Assembly (NCBI RefSeq): GCF_004349055.1
Contig: NZ_SMKX01000014.1
Span: 42,267 to 82,266 of the forward strand
Reading direction: 5' to 3'
Length of the DNA stretch: 40,000 nucleotides
Source: Kribbella antibiotica
GTDB lineage: Bacteria > Actinomycetota > Actinomycetes > Propionibacteriales > Kribbellaceae
Below, piece after piece: positions 31,174-39,254 of this stretch. Below the pieces are notes generated by a model. That model made no database searches. It worked only from the letters and a program-made list of their open reading frames with translations, and was not told the DNA's origin. The position numbers and the translations under genes are program-made. Position 1 is the first letter of the stretch. Each line of letters starts with the position of its first letter.

Positions 31174-31653
31174 CTAATCTTTCGCGAGAAGGGTCGAGGC
31201 CCAGCACGCGATGCCCTCCGCGCGACCCAATGCGCCCAGACCCTCCGCCCGTTTTCCTTTGACCGTGACCGGCGCGCCCACCACACCTGTCAAGCGTGCG
31301 CTCATCTCCACCCGACGATGCGAAAGAATCGGCCGTTCGCAGATCGTCACGCAGTCGACGTTTAACGGCCGCCAGCCTGAATTGGCAACGAGCGCCACAA
31401 TCTCGCGCAAAAGTTCAATGCTATCGGCCCCGACGCACCTTTCATCAGACTCAGGGAAGACTTCTCCCATGTCGCCCAGACCAGCCGGACCCAAGAGGGA
31501 GTCGCCAATAGCGTGGGCTATGACGTCCGCGTCGCTCAGCCCGACAAGCCCACACTCGCCAGGAAATTCGACGCCGCCGAGGATCAAGGGGCGACTTGCC
31601 CCGGCGCTGCTGAACGGGTGTACATCAAACCCAAGACCAGTTCGTATATCCAT
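31174..31653 (-). CDS. IspF-fold protein (2-C-methyl-D-erythritol 2,4-cyclodiphosphate synthase paralogue, divergent)
   Basis: 159 aa. GLGFDVHPF, LGGVEFP, SDADVIAHAIGDSLLGPAGLGDMGEVFPESD, GADSIELLREI and LGRAEGIACWA align without gaps to E. coli IspF. The His42 position is Leu, and KATTTE reads KGKRAE. Confidence 0.85.
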   Translation of the reverse strand: MDIRTGLGFDVHPFSSAGASRPLILGGVEFPGECGLVGLSDADVIAHAIGDSLLGPAGLGDMGEVFPESDERCVGADSIELLREIVALVANSGWRPLNVDCVTICERPILSHRRVEMSARLTGVVGAPVTVKGKRAEGLGALGRAEGIACWASTLLAKD

Positions 31654-31685
31654 GTGAAACTCCTCAACAATTGACGGCTCGGCCT

Positions 31686-32408
31686 CTAGCAGCAGTATCG
31701 CTCGACCGCGCGGCGATCGTCTTCATTGTCAACGTCCCGGACTCGATCGCAACGGTATGCGTATATCGAGACGTAACTCTTCCTGACGACAAACGGCAAG
31801 AAGTCACTGAGGCCGGTAGCACCTTCTGCGGCCGCCCCTGTTGCAAGCCCCAGGAGCGGACGATTGTAAAGAAGCACACCCTGGGATATCACCGGTTCTA
31901 ACGCGAGAGCTCGACCTATCTCAGCGATTCGGCCGCTAGGGTGAACACGAACTCCTTGCTCACTCCGTGAATCCTCCGGCCGCCTGTCTCGCACCCACTG
32001 AATCCCCGTCGCCTGAGCCTTCTCAAACGAGGAAATCCTGCTGAGAAATCTCACAAACTCACTCTCCGGAAACACAGCGTCCGCCAGAACTATCAGTACA
32101 CGCTCTGTTGTGACAGCGCCAAGGCCGGCGACCAAACTCTCGAGCGTGCCCGATGTAACGCATTCGACCGACGTTGTCGGTGTAGCTAAGTCCAGGTCGC
32201 GTACAAACCGACCCACGTCCGGATCAGTGGCCCGGCTCACGACCACCAGTGAGTCGAGGTCACCCCTATCCAGCAACCGCAAGAGCCGACCGATCATAGG
32301 CTCACCGCAGACAGGAACCAGAGGCTTTGGAGTACTCGGCCACGCCTCCTTCAGCCGAGTTCCCTCTCCAGCCGCAAGCACTACCCCAGTTATCGCGCCC
32401 TTCGTCAT
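31686..32408 (-). CDS. nucleotidyltransferase (NTP_transferase fold, LicC/RmlA-like)
   Basis: 240 aa. GVVLAAGEGTRLKEAWPSTPKPLVPVCGEPMIGRLL matches the LAAGxGTRL...PKPL signature of sugar-/alcohol-phosphate nucleotidylyltransferases. Confidence 0.8.
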   Translation of the reverse strand: MTKGAITGVVLAAGEGTRLKEAWPSTPKPLVPVCGEPMIGRLLRLLDRGDLDSLVVVSRATDPDVGRFVRDLDLATPTTSVECVTSGTLESLVAGLGAVTTERVLIVLADAVFPESEFVRFLSRISSFEKAQATGIQWVRDRRPEDSRSEQGVRVHPSGRIAEIGRALALEPVISQGVLLYNRPLLGLATGAAAEGATGLSDFLPFVVRKSYVSIYAYRCDRVRDVDNEDDRRAVERYCC

Positions 32409-33778
32409 TGCCCACCCTCCGCCCGGCCAAGGATCCGGGACTTCTCCGGGACAATACGCTCAGATATGTGCGCCATGAGATCCTCGATCATGGCTGGTTC
32501 ATAAACAGATGCGTTGTAGGTGGACACGAGCTCAAAGCCGCCGCCCGGGGCGTCTTCAACCAGTTCAAGCGCCAACCGATCGTTGTGGCTCGGGTCGGCA
32601 TCAGTATCTATCCAGAAGAACTCAACCTCCACGCCAGGAATGACCGGTGCCCTCTGGTGTCTGTACTGTGTAAGCAAGATGGACCGCGTTCCCAATATGT
32701 CGTCGACGCGGTGCGAAACAATTCGCTCCGCCAGATATTGATACGGGATCTTCGAATTCTTTAGCACCGCGAACAGCTCCGCCTGCGTTTGCTTGATGAC
32801 TTCGCCAAACCCAGGTCCAGGCGAGACGGGGAGCGAGAAGAGTATGCGATTGATGAAATACCCTATTGCTCGGTTAGCCGCCGCGGTAGAACGGCCGGAT
32901 ACAGTGATGAGCAAGTCTGGTGCACAGGCATCCCCTCGCTCCTGAAGTGCGGAGACCAGTGCTGCCGTGATCAACATGAATGGAGTTGCGACGTGGTCTC
33001 GGTGGCGTGACATTGCGGCCGCGACCTCGTCGGCAGAGTGACTCACGGCACTGTGCTTCATCTCTGCGGCTGTCGCTTCGCTCGTGCCTGATCCGCGGCT
33101 TGGACTCGCGACAAGATGATCGCTGGCTCGCCAGCGTCCCTCCCAGAACTGGAGCGATTCCTCAGCCCTCGATGTTCGAAGAAAGCGATCTTCCTCAAGT
33201 GCGAATGCAGCCTGACCCCAATCGGCCGTTCTCTCCGAGACGCCCGGCGATCGATGAACGAGATGGTATCGGTATGCAGTCGACAGCTCATCGAGGAACA
33301 CACTGACCGATTGGCCATCGAAAACAACATGGTCAGCCGAGAAGCCCACCAAGCAACGGTTCGGCAACTGACAGACGACTGCGCGGACGAGTGGGGGTGC
33401 GTCCAGATCGAAAGGCTTCCCCAACTCAGCTGACAGCAGATCCTCAGCGCAACGCGAGTCCCCACCTTCGGCCAGGTTCAACACCTGCAGCGGCCATTCG
33501 AACTCGGTCCGCGAAACACACGCTGCAAAGCACGAATCTGTACCGGCTGGAAAGAATTGGCGCAGGCCGTCGTGCCTCCGACCAATGACATTCAAAGCGG
33601 CCTGCAGTGCACCCACGTCGAAGGCCCCAGATATCCGTAGACCGAACGTTACCGGGGGCTTTCGGACAGGCGTCGGTCGGCGATACTGCTCGATGCGGGT
33701 ACGCTGATTGAACGATGTGTACGTAGGGCCTCCGGGCGGCCGGCTATCAGTCGCACTGTCGTGTCCTGGCGATGTCAT
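32405..33778 (-). CDS. stand-alone NRPS-type condensation (C) domain protein
   Basis: 457 aa. SADHVVFDGQS corresponds to the HHxxxDG core as DHxxxDG (second, catalytic His kept). ATGA overlaps at both ends (33775-33778 and 32405-32408). Confidence 0.8.
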   Translation of the reverse strand: MTSPGHDSATDSRPPGGPTYTSFNQRTRIEQYRRPTPVRKPPVTFGLRISGAFDVGALQAALNVIGRRHDGLRQFFPAGTDSCFAACVSRTEFEWPLQVLNLAEGGDSRCAEDLLSAELGKPFDLDAPPLVRAVVCQLPNRCLVGFSADHVVFDGQSVSVFLDELSTAYRYHLVHRSPGVSERTADWGQAAFALEEDRFLRTSRAEESLQFWEGRWRASDHLVASPSRGSGTSEATAAEMKHSAVSHSADEVAAAMSRHRDHVATPFMLITAALVSALQERGDACAPDLLITVSGRSTAAANRAIGYFINRILFSLPVSPGPGFGEVIKQTQAELFAVLKNSKIPYQYLAERIVSHRVDDILGTRSILLTQYRHQRAPVIPGVEVEFFWIDTDADPSHNDRLALELVEDAPGGGFELVSTYNASVYEPAMIEDLMAHISERIVPEKSRILGRAEGGQ

Positions 33779-37923: not shown

Positions 37924-38165
37924 TCCGCGGTAGCCGCCGTGTGGCAGGCATCGACGACTCCGCCAAAACTTCCGTCCAGAAAGAGCGACTGCAACGGGAA
38001 CTTGATGCCCAACTGTCGCTCTACCCGCTCCACCAGATTGACGGCCATCAGGGAGTTGCCACCCAGGGCGAAGAAGTCGTCTTCATCGCTCACCCCGAAG
38101 GTGTCGACGACGGCGCACCACTCGGTAGCCACCACTTCTCGGACGGCGGAGTAATCGGCTCTCAT
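37920..38165 (-). CDS. free-standing peptidyl/acyl carrier protein
   Basis: 81 aa. DDFFALGGNSLMAVNLV contains the GGxS phosphopantetheine attachment motif. ATGA overlap with the MFS gene. Confidence 0.85.
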   Translation of the reverse strand: MRADYSAVREVVATEWCAVVDTFGVSDEDDFFALGGNSLMAVNLVERVERQLGIKFPLQSLFLDGSFGGVVDACHTAATAE

Positions 38166-38168
38166 TTC

Positions 38169-39254
38169 TTATCCGTTTCCTTTCGTTCGCCCGACAACCC
38201 AGACTGGTGAGGTCTTCGCGCCGCGCAGCACCTTCGGACGCGTCGACCCCATGCCCAATTGCAGTTCCTGGCATCCGAGCTCATGTGCTAGTCGAAGCGG
38301 GCTGTAGACCAGCGCTTCGACGTAGGCAAGGTGGCGGTGGGGCGAATCCGCCAATCCGATCTCATGCATCTCGAGCACGTCGTCATGGTGACAACCGAAG
38401 CTTGCCGCCAGAAGTCGACCTTGCGTGTCGCGAACGGAGAAGCCGAATCGTGTGCCCACGTCCATTTGGGCCCAAGTGGCCAACCTCATCTCTACCAGCC
38501 GGGGATGGTCCGGAATCTGATGACGATTCTTGACCGCGACTACGAGCGGCGCGGCTTCGGGTATCAACTCCAGAGCAGAGCCGATCTCGCTTCCCAGTTC
38601 TTTCTCTTTGAGTCCCTTGATGTCACGGCGAACGACCGATCTTCGACCGTGACTAAGGCCCGCAAGGTAGGAGTCCCAACCGCGGACCGGAACAGTGGCG
38701 AACTCGTCGACCTTTACAGCTTCGCAGTGACTACCAGAGAAATAGGCGATGTCCTGGTCGCGCACATAGAGTGCCGCCGGGGCCAGCCCCGCCTGGTGCG
38801 CCTTTGCAAAAGCACCATCCACCAGCGCCTGCCCCACCAGTTGCTTTTCAAATGAGTTGAGCGCTGCCGATAACACTGGCCCTGAAACCAAGTCTGTGCC
38901 GCCAATCAACAGATATCCTGCCGGTTTTCCAACATCGTCGGTAAACAGATCAGGGGCAGCACAAGCAGGGTCGAAGATCGTGGCCGGGAAACCATTCATC
39001 AGGCACCGGGACAATGTCACGAACCCCGCTGTACTCCCATCCAGGCGGGCAGCCAGAATCGTGGACTCGAAACGTCGATCCGCAGTTGCCGCACGCACTA
39101 CCTCCGGTGCGAGTGCCACCGAGGACGCATTCCACCCCGGTGTCAGAGCATCTGGAGCGTCAAGGTCCTCGGTCAGTTCTACGTTCGACGGCCATGATGG
39201 GTCTCGCCGCATCATCGGCAAGCAGCCTCTGCCTGAATTTTGCCGTAACGACAA
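38169..39254 (-). CDS. FemAB-like / BioF2-CelD-type GNAT-fold acyl- or aminoacyl-transferase
   Basis: 361 aa. WDSYLAGLSHGRRSVVRRDIKGLKEKELG resembles the (D)YLxxLSxxxRxxxRR segment of FemAB-like (DUF482/Acetyltransf_6) proteins. Assignment is from recollection only. Start uncertain (alternative at 39215). Confidence 0.55.
   Translation of the reverse strand: MSLRQNSGRGCLPMMRRDPSWPSNVELTEDLDAPDALTPGWNASSVALAPEVVRAATADRRFESTILAARLDGSTAGFVTLSRCLMNGFPATIFDPACAAPDLFTDDVGKPAGYLLIGGTDLVSGPVLSAALNSFEKQLVGQALVDGAFAKAHQAGLAPAALYVRDQDIAYFSGSHCEAVKVDEFATVPVRGWDSYLAGLSHGRRSVVRRDIKGLKEKELGSEIGSALELIPEAAPLVVAVKNRHQIPDHPRLVEMRLATWAQMDVGTRFGFSVRDTQGRLLAASFGCHHDDVLEMHEIGLADSPHRHLAYVEALVYSPLRLAHELGCQELQLGMGSTRPKVLRGAKTSPVWVVGRTKGNG

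Follow-up and report, generated by a model that had tools for sequence, protein, structure and literature searches.

We give roughly an even chance to the reading, drawn from sequence, that a lower-GC operon in a 40,000-nucleotide stretch of Kribbella antibiotica DNA (the window) is part of an orphan secondary-metabolite cluster whose product would be an exported conjugate, with an aminoacyl or peptidyl group joined to a sugar or cyclitol phosphate that has been nucleotide-activated and then cyclised by IspF. Pfam and NCBIfam profile searches recovered, at 31174–39254, the eight tightly packed minus-strand genes that a first-pass annotation had placed there, with the same coordinates and order (5′ to 3′: FemAB-like, carrier protein, MFS, A, ATP-grasp, C, nucleotidyltransferase, IspF). 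We think that the whole cluster comprises about 11 genes, 27373–39254. The features are as follows.

27373–28719, minus strand: phosphomannomutase/phosphoglucomutase (four PGM_PMM domains; NF007088, 722 bits versus 618)
28698–29741, minus strand: GHMP kinase, mevalonate-kinase/galactokinase type (Pfam GHMP_kinases_N and _C)
29734–30597, minus strand: BtrN-like twitch radical-SAM dehydrogenase (PDB BtrN, 5e-22, by sequence)
30790–31094, minus strand: dead N-terminal B12-binding radical-SAM fragment (translation; in-frame stop)
31106–31155, minus strand: last donor-type homology, in the spacer after IspF (blastn)
31174–31653, minus strand: IspF paralogue (YgbB/IspF; TIGR00151, 145 bits versus cut-off 116)
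31686–32408, minus strand: nucleotidyltransferase (NTase), GxGTR type (NTP_transf_3, 6e-18)
32405–33778, minus strand: free-standing condensation (C) enzyme (Pfam Condensation, 4e-32)
33775–35112, minus strand: ATP-grasp ligase, L-amino-acid-ligase type (ATP-grasp_4, 28.1 bits versus GA 27)
35132–36694, minus strand: free-standing amino-acid adenylation (A) enzyme (AMP-binding, 1e-52, plus AMP-binding_C)
36694–37923, minus strand: MFS exporter, EntS/Tet(V)/MFS_3 type (Pfam MFS_1 and MFS_3)
37920–38165, minus strand: free-standing peptidyl carrier protein (T) (Pfam PP-binding, 7e-12)
38169–39215, minus strand: FemAB-like tandem-GNAT transferase (Pfam Acetyltransf_6, 23.6 bits versus GA 22)
39467–40000, plus strand: decayed insertion sequence, apparently IS3-family (three-frame translation)

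The junctions measure −4 to +32 nt, in agreement with the span from a 4-nt overlap to a 32-nt gap first reported: FemAB-like to T, +3; T to MFS, −4 (ATGA); MFS to A, −1; A to ATP-grasp, +19; ATP-grasp to C, −4 (ATGA); C to NTase, −4 (ATGA); and NTase to IspF, +32. Translational coupling is thus seen in three ATGA overlaps and in overlaps of −1, −8 and −22 nt, the last two within a downstream trio of genes. The ATP-grasp gene was assigned the ATG at 35112, which is preceded by the ribosome-binding site AAGGAGGA, and the start of its open reading frame at 35340 was rejected; for the FemAB-like gene, a TTG at 39254 is possible as an alternative start. The operon is indeed lower in GC (0.611 versus 0.670 in window positions 1–27372), GC3 is also reduced (0.61–0.76 versus 0.79–0.93 in neighbouring genes), and its composition looks foreign. 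On the 5′ side lies the insertion-sequence remnant, whose translated peptides, read by hand, point to the IS3 family: reading through orfA requires two frameshifts, the N-terminus of orfB extends past the window end, and the orfB fragment gives sub-threshold Pfam matches to HTH_21 (3.7e-4) and HTH_Tnp_1. With an IS element at this flank, the operon is recognisable as an acquired cassette; it is rare and reached Kribbella by horizontal transfer.

The original grouping hinged in part on these genes staying together in relatives, and they do so on metagenome contigs L002 and L003, the only close relatives of the cassette. Both contigs carry the same eight genes in the same order at 61–85% protein identity, indicating that the grouping is not due to chance, and L002 has an IS30-like gene upstream. 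In both, a BtrN-like radical-SAM gene of the same orientation comes directly after IspF, at a distance of about 70 nt, and the eight genes plus this one are syntenic at 54–85% identity. The C-domain family also occurs in two distant cousin clusters, L001 and L004, at 28–30% identity. L001, which adjoins SARP regulators, contains IspD (near threshold), SDR, A-T, IspE, two ATP-grasp genes, MFS and IspF, with IspE and IspF above threshold. L004 contains IspE, C, IspD, SDR and MFS; its IspE and IspD are called only from GHMP Pfam domains and from their similarity to the L001 proteins (48% and 43%, respectively). Of the two cousins, one carries IspF. Neither the NTase nor the kinase in the window is a homologue of the cousins' IspD or IspE, and equating these clusters with the one in the window would be an analogy.

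The boundary at 31174 fared less well than the eight genes themselves: the functional unit most likely extends down to 27373, and as first drawn it missed the trio, a recombination scar and the IS element. The trio (27373–30597) is tightly arranged, with the kinase gene overlapping the radical-SAM stop by 8 nt and the mutase start overlapping the kinase gene by 22 nt. The radical-SAM protein has a CX3CX2C motif and four later Cys, and its AF2 model (pLDDT 89.4) matches BtrN in Foldseek (5.7e-17; TM 0.71/0.82), followed by DesII and SpeY. All three of these enzymes use sugars or cyclitols, and the window enzyme is predicted to act on a carbohydrate or cyclitol. The GHMP kinase (motif PVGAGVSSSAA) always comes after the radical-SAM gene in relatives; its assignment as IspE was rejected on NCBIfam and PDB matches of the mevalonate-kinase/galactokinase type. 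The mutase carries a TASHNP active-site motif.

It is conceivable that the eight-gene cassette is self-contained and takes its scaffold from primary metabolism, in which case the trio would be an unrelated resident, for example a module for sugar salvage or development with whiJ-type regulation. Pseudonocardia, Nocardia, Kitasatospora and others have the trio as a conserved unit, and it occurs in many actinomycetes without the cassette; its downstream position may thus be a coincidence and the module an independent one. Its GC3 is host-like, and the window radical-SAM protein is closer to stand-alone copies (71–87% identity) than to that of L003 (54%). A 576-nt pseudogene-bearing spacer separates the trio from IspF and counts against our preferred reading. 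Within it, the dead fragment has a host-like GC of 0.674 and a sub-threshold Pfam B12-binding match (5.5e-4), and we interpret it as a scar of recombination at the join of cassette and trio. Positions 31106–31155 retain 83% identity to the IspF–radical-SAM spacer of L002/L003, and this donor-type homology stops at about 31100, beside the dead fragment. Nevertheless, the same-family radical-SAM gene behind IspF in L002/L003 means that a second lineage, with a different radical-SAM allele, shows the association again. The P0006 contig likewise has a further gene after NTase–IspF, and the kinase and dehydrogenase of the cousin clusters would be functional analogues of the trio enzymes. We consider an unrelated trio unlikely.

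The IspF paralogue relates the cluster to the MEP pathway (IspD, IspE, IspF). Its nearest non-cluster relatives are housekeeping IspF proteins of Acidimicrobiia in an ispD–ispF context, and this orthologue-level match (61–67% identity, above the TIGR00151 cut-off) indicates derivation from housekeeping IspF. The metal ligands are all retained (Zn ligands D8/H10/H42, and E135), but comparison with 116 relatives revealed the clade-specific changes H34L, D63E, T64S, I57M and K104I/L, with the altered substrate-contact positions invariant in those relatives. H34, D63, I57 and K104 contact the polyol-phosphate loop, methyl group and cytidine in IspF (PMC2151065). As judged from the alignment, the substrate pocket is remodelled and the metal site kept. 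An NTase gene lies immediately upstream, as ispD does, and a GHMP kinase is present, such that NTP activation, phosphorylation and cyclisation with NMP loss would be common to both pathways. The window cluster differs from the MEP pathway in that these contact residues are altered, the kinase resembles mevalonate kinase and galactokinase and is not IspE, the surroundings are an acquired cassette with NRPS, ATP-grasp, Fem-like and MFS genes, and the cluster holds no terpene enzymes. The NTase also fails the IspD models, its assignment as an IspD orthologue being rejected at 22.8 bits (below GA 27); it matches NCBIfam IPCT/DIPPS over its full length (2.9e-10), with RmlA and CTP:inositol-1-phosphate cytidylyltransferase as nearest solved relatives (PDB 1lvw, 2xme).

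Since the IspF paralogue passes the equivalog cut-off and retains such housekeeping identity, MEcPP may be its sole product. It could then be an ordinary MEcPP synthase, kept as an extra copy for precursor supply or for self-resistance to a MEP-targeting product; A-T-C, the ATP-grasp ligase and the Fem-like enzyme would then assemble the real product, a small peptide, and the NTase would have an unrelated role. Extra copies of essential genes within biosynthetic clusters are a recognised sign of self-resistance, and the profile score, the housekeeping relatives and the intact metal site all fit this explanation. However, IspF is always found 32–39 nt downstream of a non-IspD NTase (window, L002/L003 and P0006), its substrate-contact changes are clade-specific, and none of these clusters contains a user of terpene precursors. 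Furthermore, the IspD and IspE of the cousins, with IspF in L001, fit a biosynthetic sub-pathway better than a lone resistant target. An ordinary extra copy seems improbable to us.

On the peptide side, A, T and C are each free-standing, as first proposed. The carrier protein has the motif LGGNSL (GGNS) and is 81% identical to its L002 homologue. The A enzyme matches TIGR01733 (283 bits), among solved structures it comes closest to LgrA, in the second A domain (7e-72), and hand reading (FDPSVF) agreed with the D-P-x-x-F start reported for its code; the full code, which we take to be D-P-F-Y-R-I-V-I-S-K, was derived by hand against GrsA motifs. The C enzyme is identical (100%) to K. antibiotica E1263_07390 and, besides that record, a search of 5.8 billion proteins returned only two distant homologues, one of them from a cousin cluster. 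Its motif A-D-H-V-V-F-D-G has Asp in place of the first His of HHxxxDG, with the catalytic His and Asp retained in alignment, and its PDB profile matches include Txo1/Txo2 as well as SgcC5 (4znm, 9e-19), a free-standing enzyme that forms esters and off-loads onto a small-molecule nucleophile. The type II NRPS of C-1027 (SgcC1/SgcC2/SgcC5) is thus comparable in its separate A, T and C and in having no thioesterase, but differs in that the window C protein is isolated and carries the His-to-Asp change.

Two further enzymes could add residues. The ATP-grasp ligase resembles L-amino-acid ligases (BacD, RizA/BL00235, DdaF), its best solved and NCBIfam matches (BacD and PRK02186 in NCBIfam; PDB ligases, E about 1e-5), although these are weak, at E about 1e-5 to 1e-15. 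The FemAB-like assignment was the weakest of the eight, all of which were upheld, and is borne out by a tandem-GNAT fold and by structural matches. Its family members match PF13480 in 26 of 48 cases and PF04339 (FemAB_like) in 19 of 48. In Foldseek, the AF2 model (pLDDT 93.5) has Sbb17/Sba18 (E 5e-13), MprF C-terminal domains and FemX as top matches, the best being all aminoacyl-tRNA-dependent transferases, and the protein is predicted to be one. It shares its fold with FemX, the MprF C-domain, Orf11/Sba18/Sbb17, PacB, DhpH/DhpK and VlmA, and like PacB adjoins dissociated NRPS parts; it is only 10–15% identical to this group and forms a small separate family of about 400 representatives. Its family-invariant, near-C-terminal Lys328 resembles the catalytic Lys305 of FemX (PMC12945691).

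Several of these proteins would also suit modification of the cell envelope: instead of yielding a diffusible metabolite, the pathway would aminoacylate a polymer or lipid of polyol phosphate or inositol phosphate in Dlt- or MprF-like fashion, with CDP-polyol made by the NTase and the MFS protein as flippase. The A enzyme aligns with DltA over its full length (NCBIfam), the carrier protein is free-standing as DltC is, the Fem-like fold matches MprF aminoacyl-phosphatidylglycerol synthase domains, and the NTase resembles inositol-phosphate and sugar-phosphate cytidylyl/nucleotidyl transferases. We nonetheless regard an envelope role as highly unlikely: the window contains no DltB/DltD, polyol-phosphate transferase or glycosyltransferase, the cassette includes a C domain of NRPS type as well as an L-amino-acid ligase and is compositionally foreign, IS-flanked and extremely rare, and cousin L001 adjoins antibiotic regulators of SARP type. 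The MFS protein, 85% identical to that of L002, belongs with efflux pumps such as EntS and Tet(V), the NCBIfam models that it matches besides TIGR00900.

The aminoacylated phospho-sugar or cyclitol remains our preferred reading. The first-pass annotation had not recognised the arrangement from any characterised pathway, and literature and plasmid searches likewise returned no characterised counterpart. In the butirosin pathway (BtrN, BtrI, BtrJ), a free carrier protein and an ATP-grasp ligase serve to assemble the aminoacyl side chain of a scaffold that contains a cyclitol, and BtrN is the best match of the window radical-SAM protein in both sequence and structure. That protein is only 21–24% identical to BtrN and belongs to a separate radical-SAM–kinase–mutase trio, and the cluster has no 2-deoxy-scyllo-inosose synthase. 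Nor does it contain a glycosyltransferase, aminotransferase or phosphopantetheinyl transferase, which counts against the preferred reading. The product class suggested by the first-pass annotation, an aminoacyl or peptidyl moiety attached to a sugar or polyol that is nucleotide-activated or carries a cyclic phosphate, is still a prediction but has gained support from the BtrN-like dehydrogenase, GHMP kinase and phosphohexomutase directly downstream, from the remodelled IspF pocket, and from cousin clusters that pair the C-domain family with IspD and IspE (one also with IspF).

Taking each chemical step from family membership, we propose that the phosphohexomutase and/or GHMP kinase would supply a sugar or cyclitol phosphate, one hydroxyl of which would be oxidised by the radical-SAM enzyme. 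The NTase would turn this phosphate into an NDP derivative, with CDP as the probable nucleotide, and the IspF paralogue would expel NMP through intramolecular attack by a phosphate or hydroxyl, mirroring IspF on CDP-ME2P and yielding a cyclic diphosphate or cyclic phosphate. Meanwhile, the A enzyme would load an alpha-amino acid onto the carrier protein, and the C enzyme, which we place at off-loading because the cluster has no thioesterase, would pass it to a scaffold hydroxyl or amine. The ATP-grasp ligase and the FemX-like, aminoacyl-tRNA-dependent transferase may add further residues, and the MFS pump would export the product.

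The eight minus-strand genes that the first-pass annotation had assigned to positions 31174-39254, and their order, are borne out by the ORF listing and by Pfam/NCBIfam scans.

Genes of the operon (ORF listing with Pfam/NCBIfam scans; IspF by TIGR00151)
38169-39215, minus strand: Acetyltransf_6/FemAB-like (Fem-like) protein
37920-38165, minus strand: carrier protein (T)
36694-37923, minus strand: MFS transporter
35132-36694, minus strand: adenylation enzyme (A)
33775-35112, minus strand: ATP-grasp protein
32405-33778, minus strand: condensation enzyme (C)
31686-32408, minus strand: NTP_transf_3 nucleotidyltransferase (NTase)
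31174-31653, minus strand: IspF (145 bits; cut-off 116)

In the order listed, the junctions measure +3, -4, -1, +19, -4, -4 and +32 nt, with three ATGA overlaps. The C protein is 100% identical to the hypothetical protein E1263_07390 of Kribbella antibiotica. The lower GC content remarked on at first reading also holds: the operon has 61.1% GC in a window of actinobacterial chromosome with ~67%, and its GC3 of 0.61-0.76 compares with 0.79-0.93 in the adjoining genes. Because of this low GC, the block appears compositionally foreign. The proposed extent of the unit does not stand, however, since three further same-strand genes lie downstream. Scanning for promoters and terminators gave signal at chance level, a repeat search detected no flanking repeats, and an Rfam search detected no riboswitch.

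To our knowledge, the only role otherwise known for IspF is a housekeeping one, in making isoprenoid precursors. The window protein scores 145.3 bits against TIGR00151 (equivalog cut-off 116.45) and matches Pfam YgbB at 3e-48 over 154 of 155 positions. We compared four IspF proteins of the cluster clade with 116 relatives, using E. coli numbering. The zinc ligands Asp8, His10 and His42 and the second-metal ligand Glu135 are kept in the window IspF and its clade and, like S35, G58 and P103, are common to the cluster clade and the 116 relatives. The window IspF carries replacements at the conserved positions touching ME2P and cytidine (His34, Asp63, Ile/Leu57 and Lys104), as detailed below.

IspF positions that differ between the cluster clade and its relatives
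H34: L in the cluster clade; H in 116/116 relatives
D63: E in the cluster clade; D in 116/116 relatives
T64: S in the cluster clade; T in 98/116 relatives
I57: M in the cluster clade; I, L or V in 116/116 relatives
K104: I or L in the cluster clade (I in the window); K or R in 104/116 relatives

Via Asp63 and Asp65, the His34 side chain holds in place the loop of residues 61-71, where the methylerythritol-2-phosphate part is bound, while Ile57 contacts the substrate methyl group and Lys104 stacks against the cytidine (PMC2151065). Because the ligands are conserved and the contact residues changed, the catalytic machinery seems to have been kept and substrate recognition remodelled. This combination speaks against an ordinary extra MEcPP synthase, maintained for resistance or precursor supply, which we consider improbable; the pattern would better fit a different, though related, NDP-polyol or NDP-sugar phosphate than the role of a plain spare MEcPP synthase.

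Beyond three cluster-borne homologues, hundreds of IspF relatives share 61-67% identity with the window protein, mostly from Acidimicrobiia, and the one relative of this type that we checked lies in a housekeeping ispD-ispF context. In the Acidimicrobiia-type relatives (P0008-P0123, and L014 at 4001-4498), Lys/Arg-Arg replaces Thr132/Thr133 within the motif KGKRAEG. A 2007 structural paper termed this Thr pair strictly conserved; its replacement appears to represent a different mode of diphosphate binding that runs through the whole lineage. We rejected KRA for TTT at positions 132-134 as a cluster-specific trait, since the housekeeping Acidimicrobiia enzymes share KRA.

The dissociated NRPS proteins of the operon have the expected A core, T serine and C motif. 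The A enzyme scores 283 bits against TIGR01733, just below the 317 cut-off, and carries FDPS (Asp235 equivalent) and GKIDY (terminal Lys); judged from its sequence, it is a genuine amino-acid adenylation domain. Its specificity code, read by hand as D-P-F-Y-R-I-V-I-S-K, matches no A-domain code known to us, and the Arg at position 299 may indicate a substrate whose side chain is acidic. The T protein bears the serine motif LGGNSL. In the C-enzyme motif ADHVVFDG, the catalytic residues, the second His and the Asp, are kept and the first His of HHxxxDG is replaced by Asp. This enzyme matches, among others, SgcC5, a free-standing, ester-forming C enzyme, and likely performs the off-loading step, because the cluster contains no thioesterase. 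The ATP-grasp protein is predicted to be of the L-amino-acid-ligase type. The NTase fails the IspD models (PF01128, 22.8 vs 27; TIGR00453, 27.3 vs 181) and is closest to RmlA and CTP:inositol-1-phosphate cytidylyltransferase.

The Fem-like family has ~400 representatives among 1.84 billion, and its members match PF13480 and PF04339 (FemAB_like), the latter in 19 of 48. Sequence and profile searches of solved structures gave no match for the Fem-like protein, so a fold search was needed. The AF2 model (pLDDT 93.5) adopts a tandem-GNAT fold, and its top 25 Foldseek matches (E 5e-13 to 7e-10) begin with Sbb17/Sba18, followed by MprF C-domains and FemX. Sbb17 and Sba18 are aminoacyl-tRNA-dependent peptide synthases, and the MprF domains are aminoacyl-phosphatidylglycerol synthases. 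Lys328 is invariant across 61 family members and recalls the catalytic Lys in the second GNAT domain of the aminoacyl-tRNA-dependent GNAT-fold group (FemX Lys305, DhpH Lys329; PMC12945691). The modelled Fem-like enzyme best matches an aminoacyl-tRNA-dependent transferase, which is its predicted function. We also weighed whether the system modifies the cell envelope in a Dlt- or MprF-like manner, and think this very unlikely.

The search with IspF identified three close relatives at 72-78% identity. The closest is borne by two metagenome contigs, L002 (JGI) and L003 (Logan), the only close relatives of the operon, which carry the same eight genes in the same order. The gene set is thus conserved together, and the refuting outcome named at first reading, a lack of joint conservation in relatives, did not appear. 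Identities to L002/L003 are 74% for the Fem-like protein, 81% for T, 85% for MFS, 73% for A, 78% for ATP-grasp, 61% for C, 71% for the NTase and 78% for IspF. A radical-SAM (rSAM) gene follows ~70 nt past IspF on these contigs, 54% identical to the first of the three downstream genes in the window, where a 576-nt spacer separates IspF from rSAM. Nucleotide homology to L002/L003 runs 52 nt beyond the IspF stop and ends at ~31100, the point at which both the L002/L003 rSAM gene and a dead gene fragment in the window begin.

Remnants flanking the operon
30790-31094, minus strand: dead fragment within the IspF-rSAM spacer, corresponding to the N-terminus of a B12-binding radical-SAM gene, broken by an in-frame stop and host-like in GC
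39467-40000, plus strand: decayed IS3-family element upstream of the operon, with orfA split over three frames and the orfB N-terminus running off the window end

The B12-radical-SAM fragment is probably the scar left when recombination linked the eight-gene cassette with the three downstream genes. L002 has an IS30-like gene upstream, on the same side of the operon as the IS3 remnant. In our reading of these features, the cassette was acquired and recombined onto a copy of the downstream module that was already resident. The contig that encodes P0006 (JGI 3300041965) has a cluster-clade NTase-IspF pair, with IspF at 76% identity; in place of the C and ATP-grasp genes, unrelated genes on the opposite strand lie ahead of it. 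Because these neighbours differ, the NTase-IspF pair may also travel without the peptide-forming genes.

The downstream genes form a tight trio.

Genes of the trio
29734-30597, minus strand: radical-SAM/SPASM gene, first of the trio
28698-29741, minus strand: GHMP kinase, overlapping the rSAM stop by 8 nt
27373-28719, minus strand: phosphomannomutase/phosphoglucomutase, with a 22-nt overlap with the kinase

Searching with the rSAM protein returned ~140 actinomycete homologues, and in the contexts examined the tight rSAM-GHMP kinase-phosphohexomutase trio occurs without the eight genes.

Trio contexts elsewhere
L007, 9402-12661: forest-soil contig
L008, 4461-7690: Pseudonocardia (L008/L009)
L010, 10001-13283: Nocardia takedensis
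L012, 10001-13378: Kitasatospora (L012/L013), with whiJ-type regulator genes upstream

Only the rSAM-kinase pair is visible on a short contig, L016; in every other context examined the trio stands apart from the eight genes and thus appears to be a module in its own right. The trio could then be unrelated to the cassette, but an rSAM of this family comes after IspF in two lineages, each with its own allele, which argues that the cassette makes use of it, and we regard the unrelated trio as rather unlikely. The literature yielded no function for the trio. Genes of whiJ type (HTH_31/DUF5753, DUF397, HATPase_c_2) often precede it. A reading as a defence island, raised by its position elsewhere near CRISPR and HTH_31/DUF397 genes, was rejected, with no match to PADLOC anti-phage models among ten proteins.

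The rSAM protein matches BtrN at 5e-22 by sequence, and its AF2 model (pLDDT 89.4) retrieves BtrN in Foldseek (5.7e-17; TM 0.71/0.82), then DesII and SpeY. Its CX3CX2C motif reads CNRTCGWC, and the later cysteines C202, C220/221, C270 and C273 are all conserved, giving the four-Cys auxiliary cluster of the BtrN type. BtrN, DesII and SpeY, all of the radical-SAM class, oxidise sugars or cyclitols. As these are the nearest structures, rSAM would be expected to oxidise a secondary alcohol in a substrate of this kind. The NCBIfam matches of the GHMP kinase, best to mevalonate kinase and galactokinase, include no IspE model, and BLAST gave no match to the IspE of the cousin cluster L001. The ~2.4 kb downstream of the phosphomutase (24966-27372) has no ORF with convincing codon bias and may be non-coding or decayed sequence. 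Two adjacent large minus-strand genes beyond it (19574-21889 and 21837-24965; 771 and 1042 aa) have a clear coding signal and GC3 of 0.87, with no Pfam, NCBIfam or PADLOC match.

In a search of 5.8 billion proteins, the only distant C-protein homologue covering most of the length was P0002 (28% identity). It lies in L001, whose operon reads C, IspD, SDR, A-T, IspE, ATP-grasp, MFS, ATP-grasp, IspF and adjoins two SARP regulators; its IspE and IspF score above the equivalog cut-offs, its IspD slightly under. A first genome scan, queried with the C protein alone, gave no hit. A second scan, queried with a three-sequence alignment, gave one true cousin, L004, from an Actinokineospora MAG, where a compact operon at 4576-9784 reads IspE-C-IspD-SDR-MFS; L005 and L006 were set aside as ordinary NRPS loci. 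L004 resembles a pared-down version of the cousin type, a free-standing C among MEP-type enzymes; A, T, ATP-grasp and IspF genes are absent nearby. From L001 and L004 it follows that the C-domain family recurs with MEP-pathway-type enzymes and a dehydrogenase. The window type swaps IspD, IspE and SDR for unrelated enzymes of the corresponding functional classes: NTase, GHMP kinase and rSAM.

A metagenome scan gave only L015 (21% identity), and exact-sequence look-ups for the C protein gave no contig. Plasmid tblastn gave nothing relevant, its hits being generic NRPS C domains of ≤27.5% identity, and full-text literature searches on IspF/IspD/IspE-type genes with peptide-forming enzymes brought up only genome surveys and terpene papers. 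These literature and plasmid searches gave no characterised counterpart to the cluster, in agreement with the earlier impression that the arrangement belongs to no recognised pathway.

Our main model, which we judge about evenly balanced between right and wrong, joins a scaffold arm and a peptide arm into an exported conjugate. The mutase and/or kinase would supply a sugar or cyclitol phosphate, rSAM would oxidise one hydroxyl, the NTase would form an NDP derivative, and the IspF paralogue would expel NMP through intramolecular attack, leaving a cyclic diphosphate or cyclic phosphate. On the peptide side, A would load T, C would move the residue from T onto the scaffold, the ATP-grasp ligase and tRNA-dependent transferase would append further residues, and MFS would export the product. 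More tentatively, the window cluster, L001 and L004 could represent a new natural-product class, its scaffold built by MEP-pathway-type chemistry recruited to secondary metabolism: NDP activation, then phosphorylation, then IspF cyclisation where IspF is present. Such a pathway would yield a sugar, cyclitol or branched polyol in the form of a cyclic diphosphate or cyclic phosphate that is also aminoacylated.

Actinomycetes commonly carry orphan clusters, and all parts of this one belong to known families; its unusual feature is that a peptide-forming cluster has recruited a remodelled IspF and that this recruitment is conserved. The cousins likewise recruit IspD and IspE, and L001 also IspF. 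The analysis also brings to light a widespread, uncharacterised actinomycete trio of BtrN-like radical-SAM enzyme, GHMP kinase and phosphohexomutase. In a conserved operon, a remodelled IspF is fixed alongside an exporter and three different amino-acid-adding systems; this points to natural-product chemistry of the phosphate-ester or cyclic-diphosphate kind that is so far unexplored, encoded by a small gene set (~12 kb) open to heterologous expression. If the proposal is true, it would mark the first time that the IspF fold serves a biosynthesis other than that of isoprenoid precursors. The compound could then mimic MEcPP and hence might inhibit the MEP pathway, which is absent from humans; a product mimicking an intermediate of that pathway would be a lead for its inhibition.
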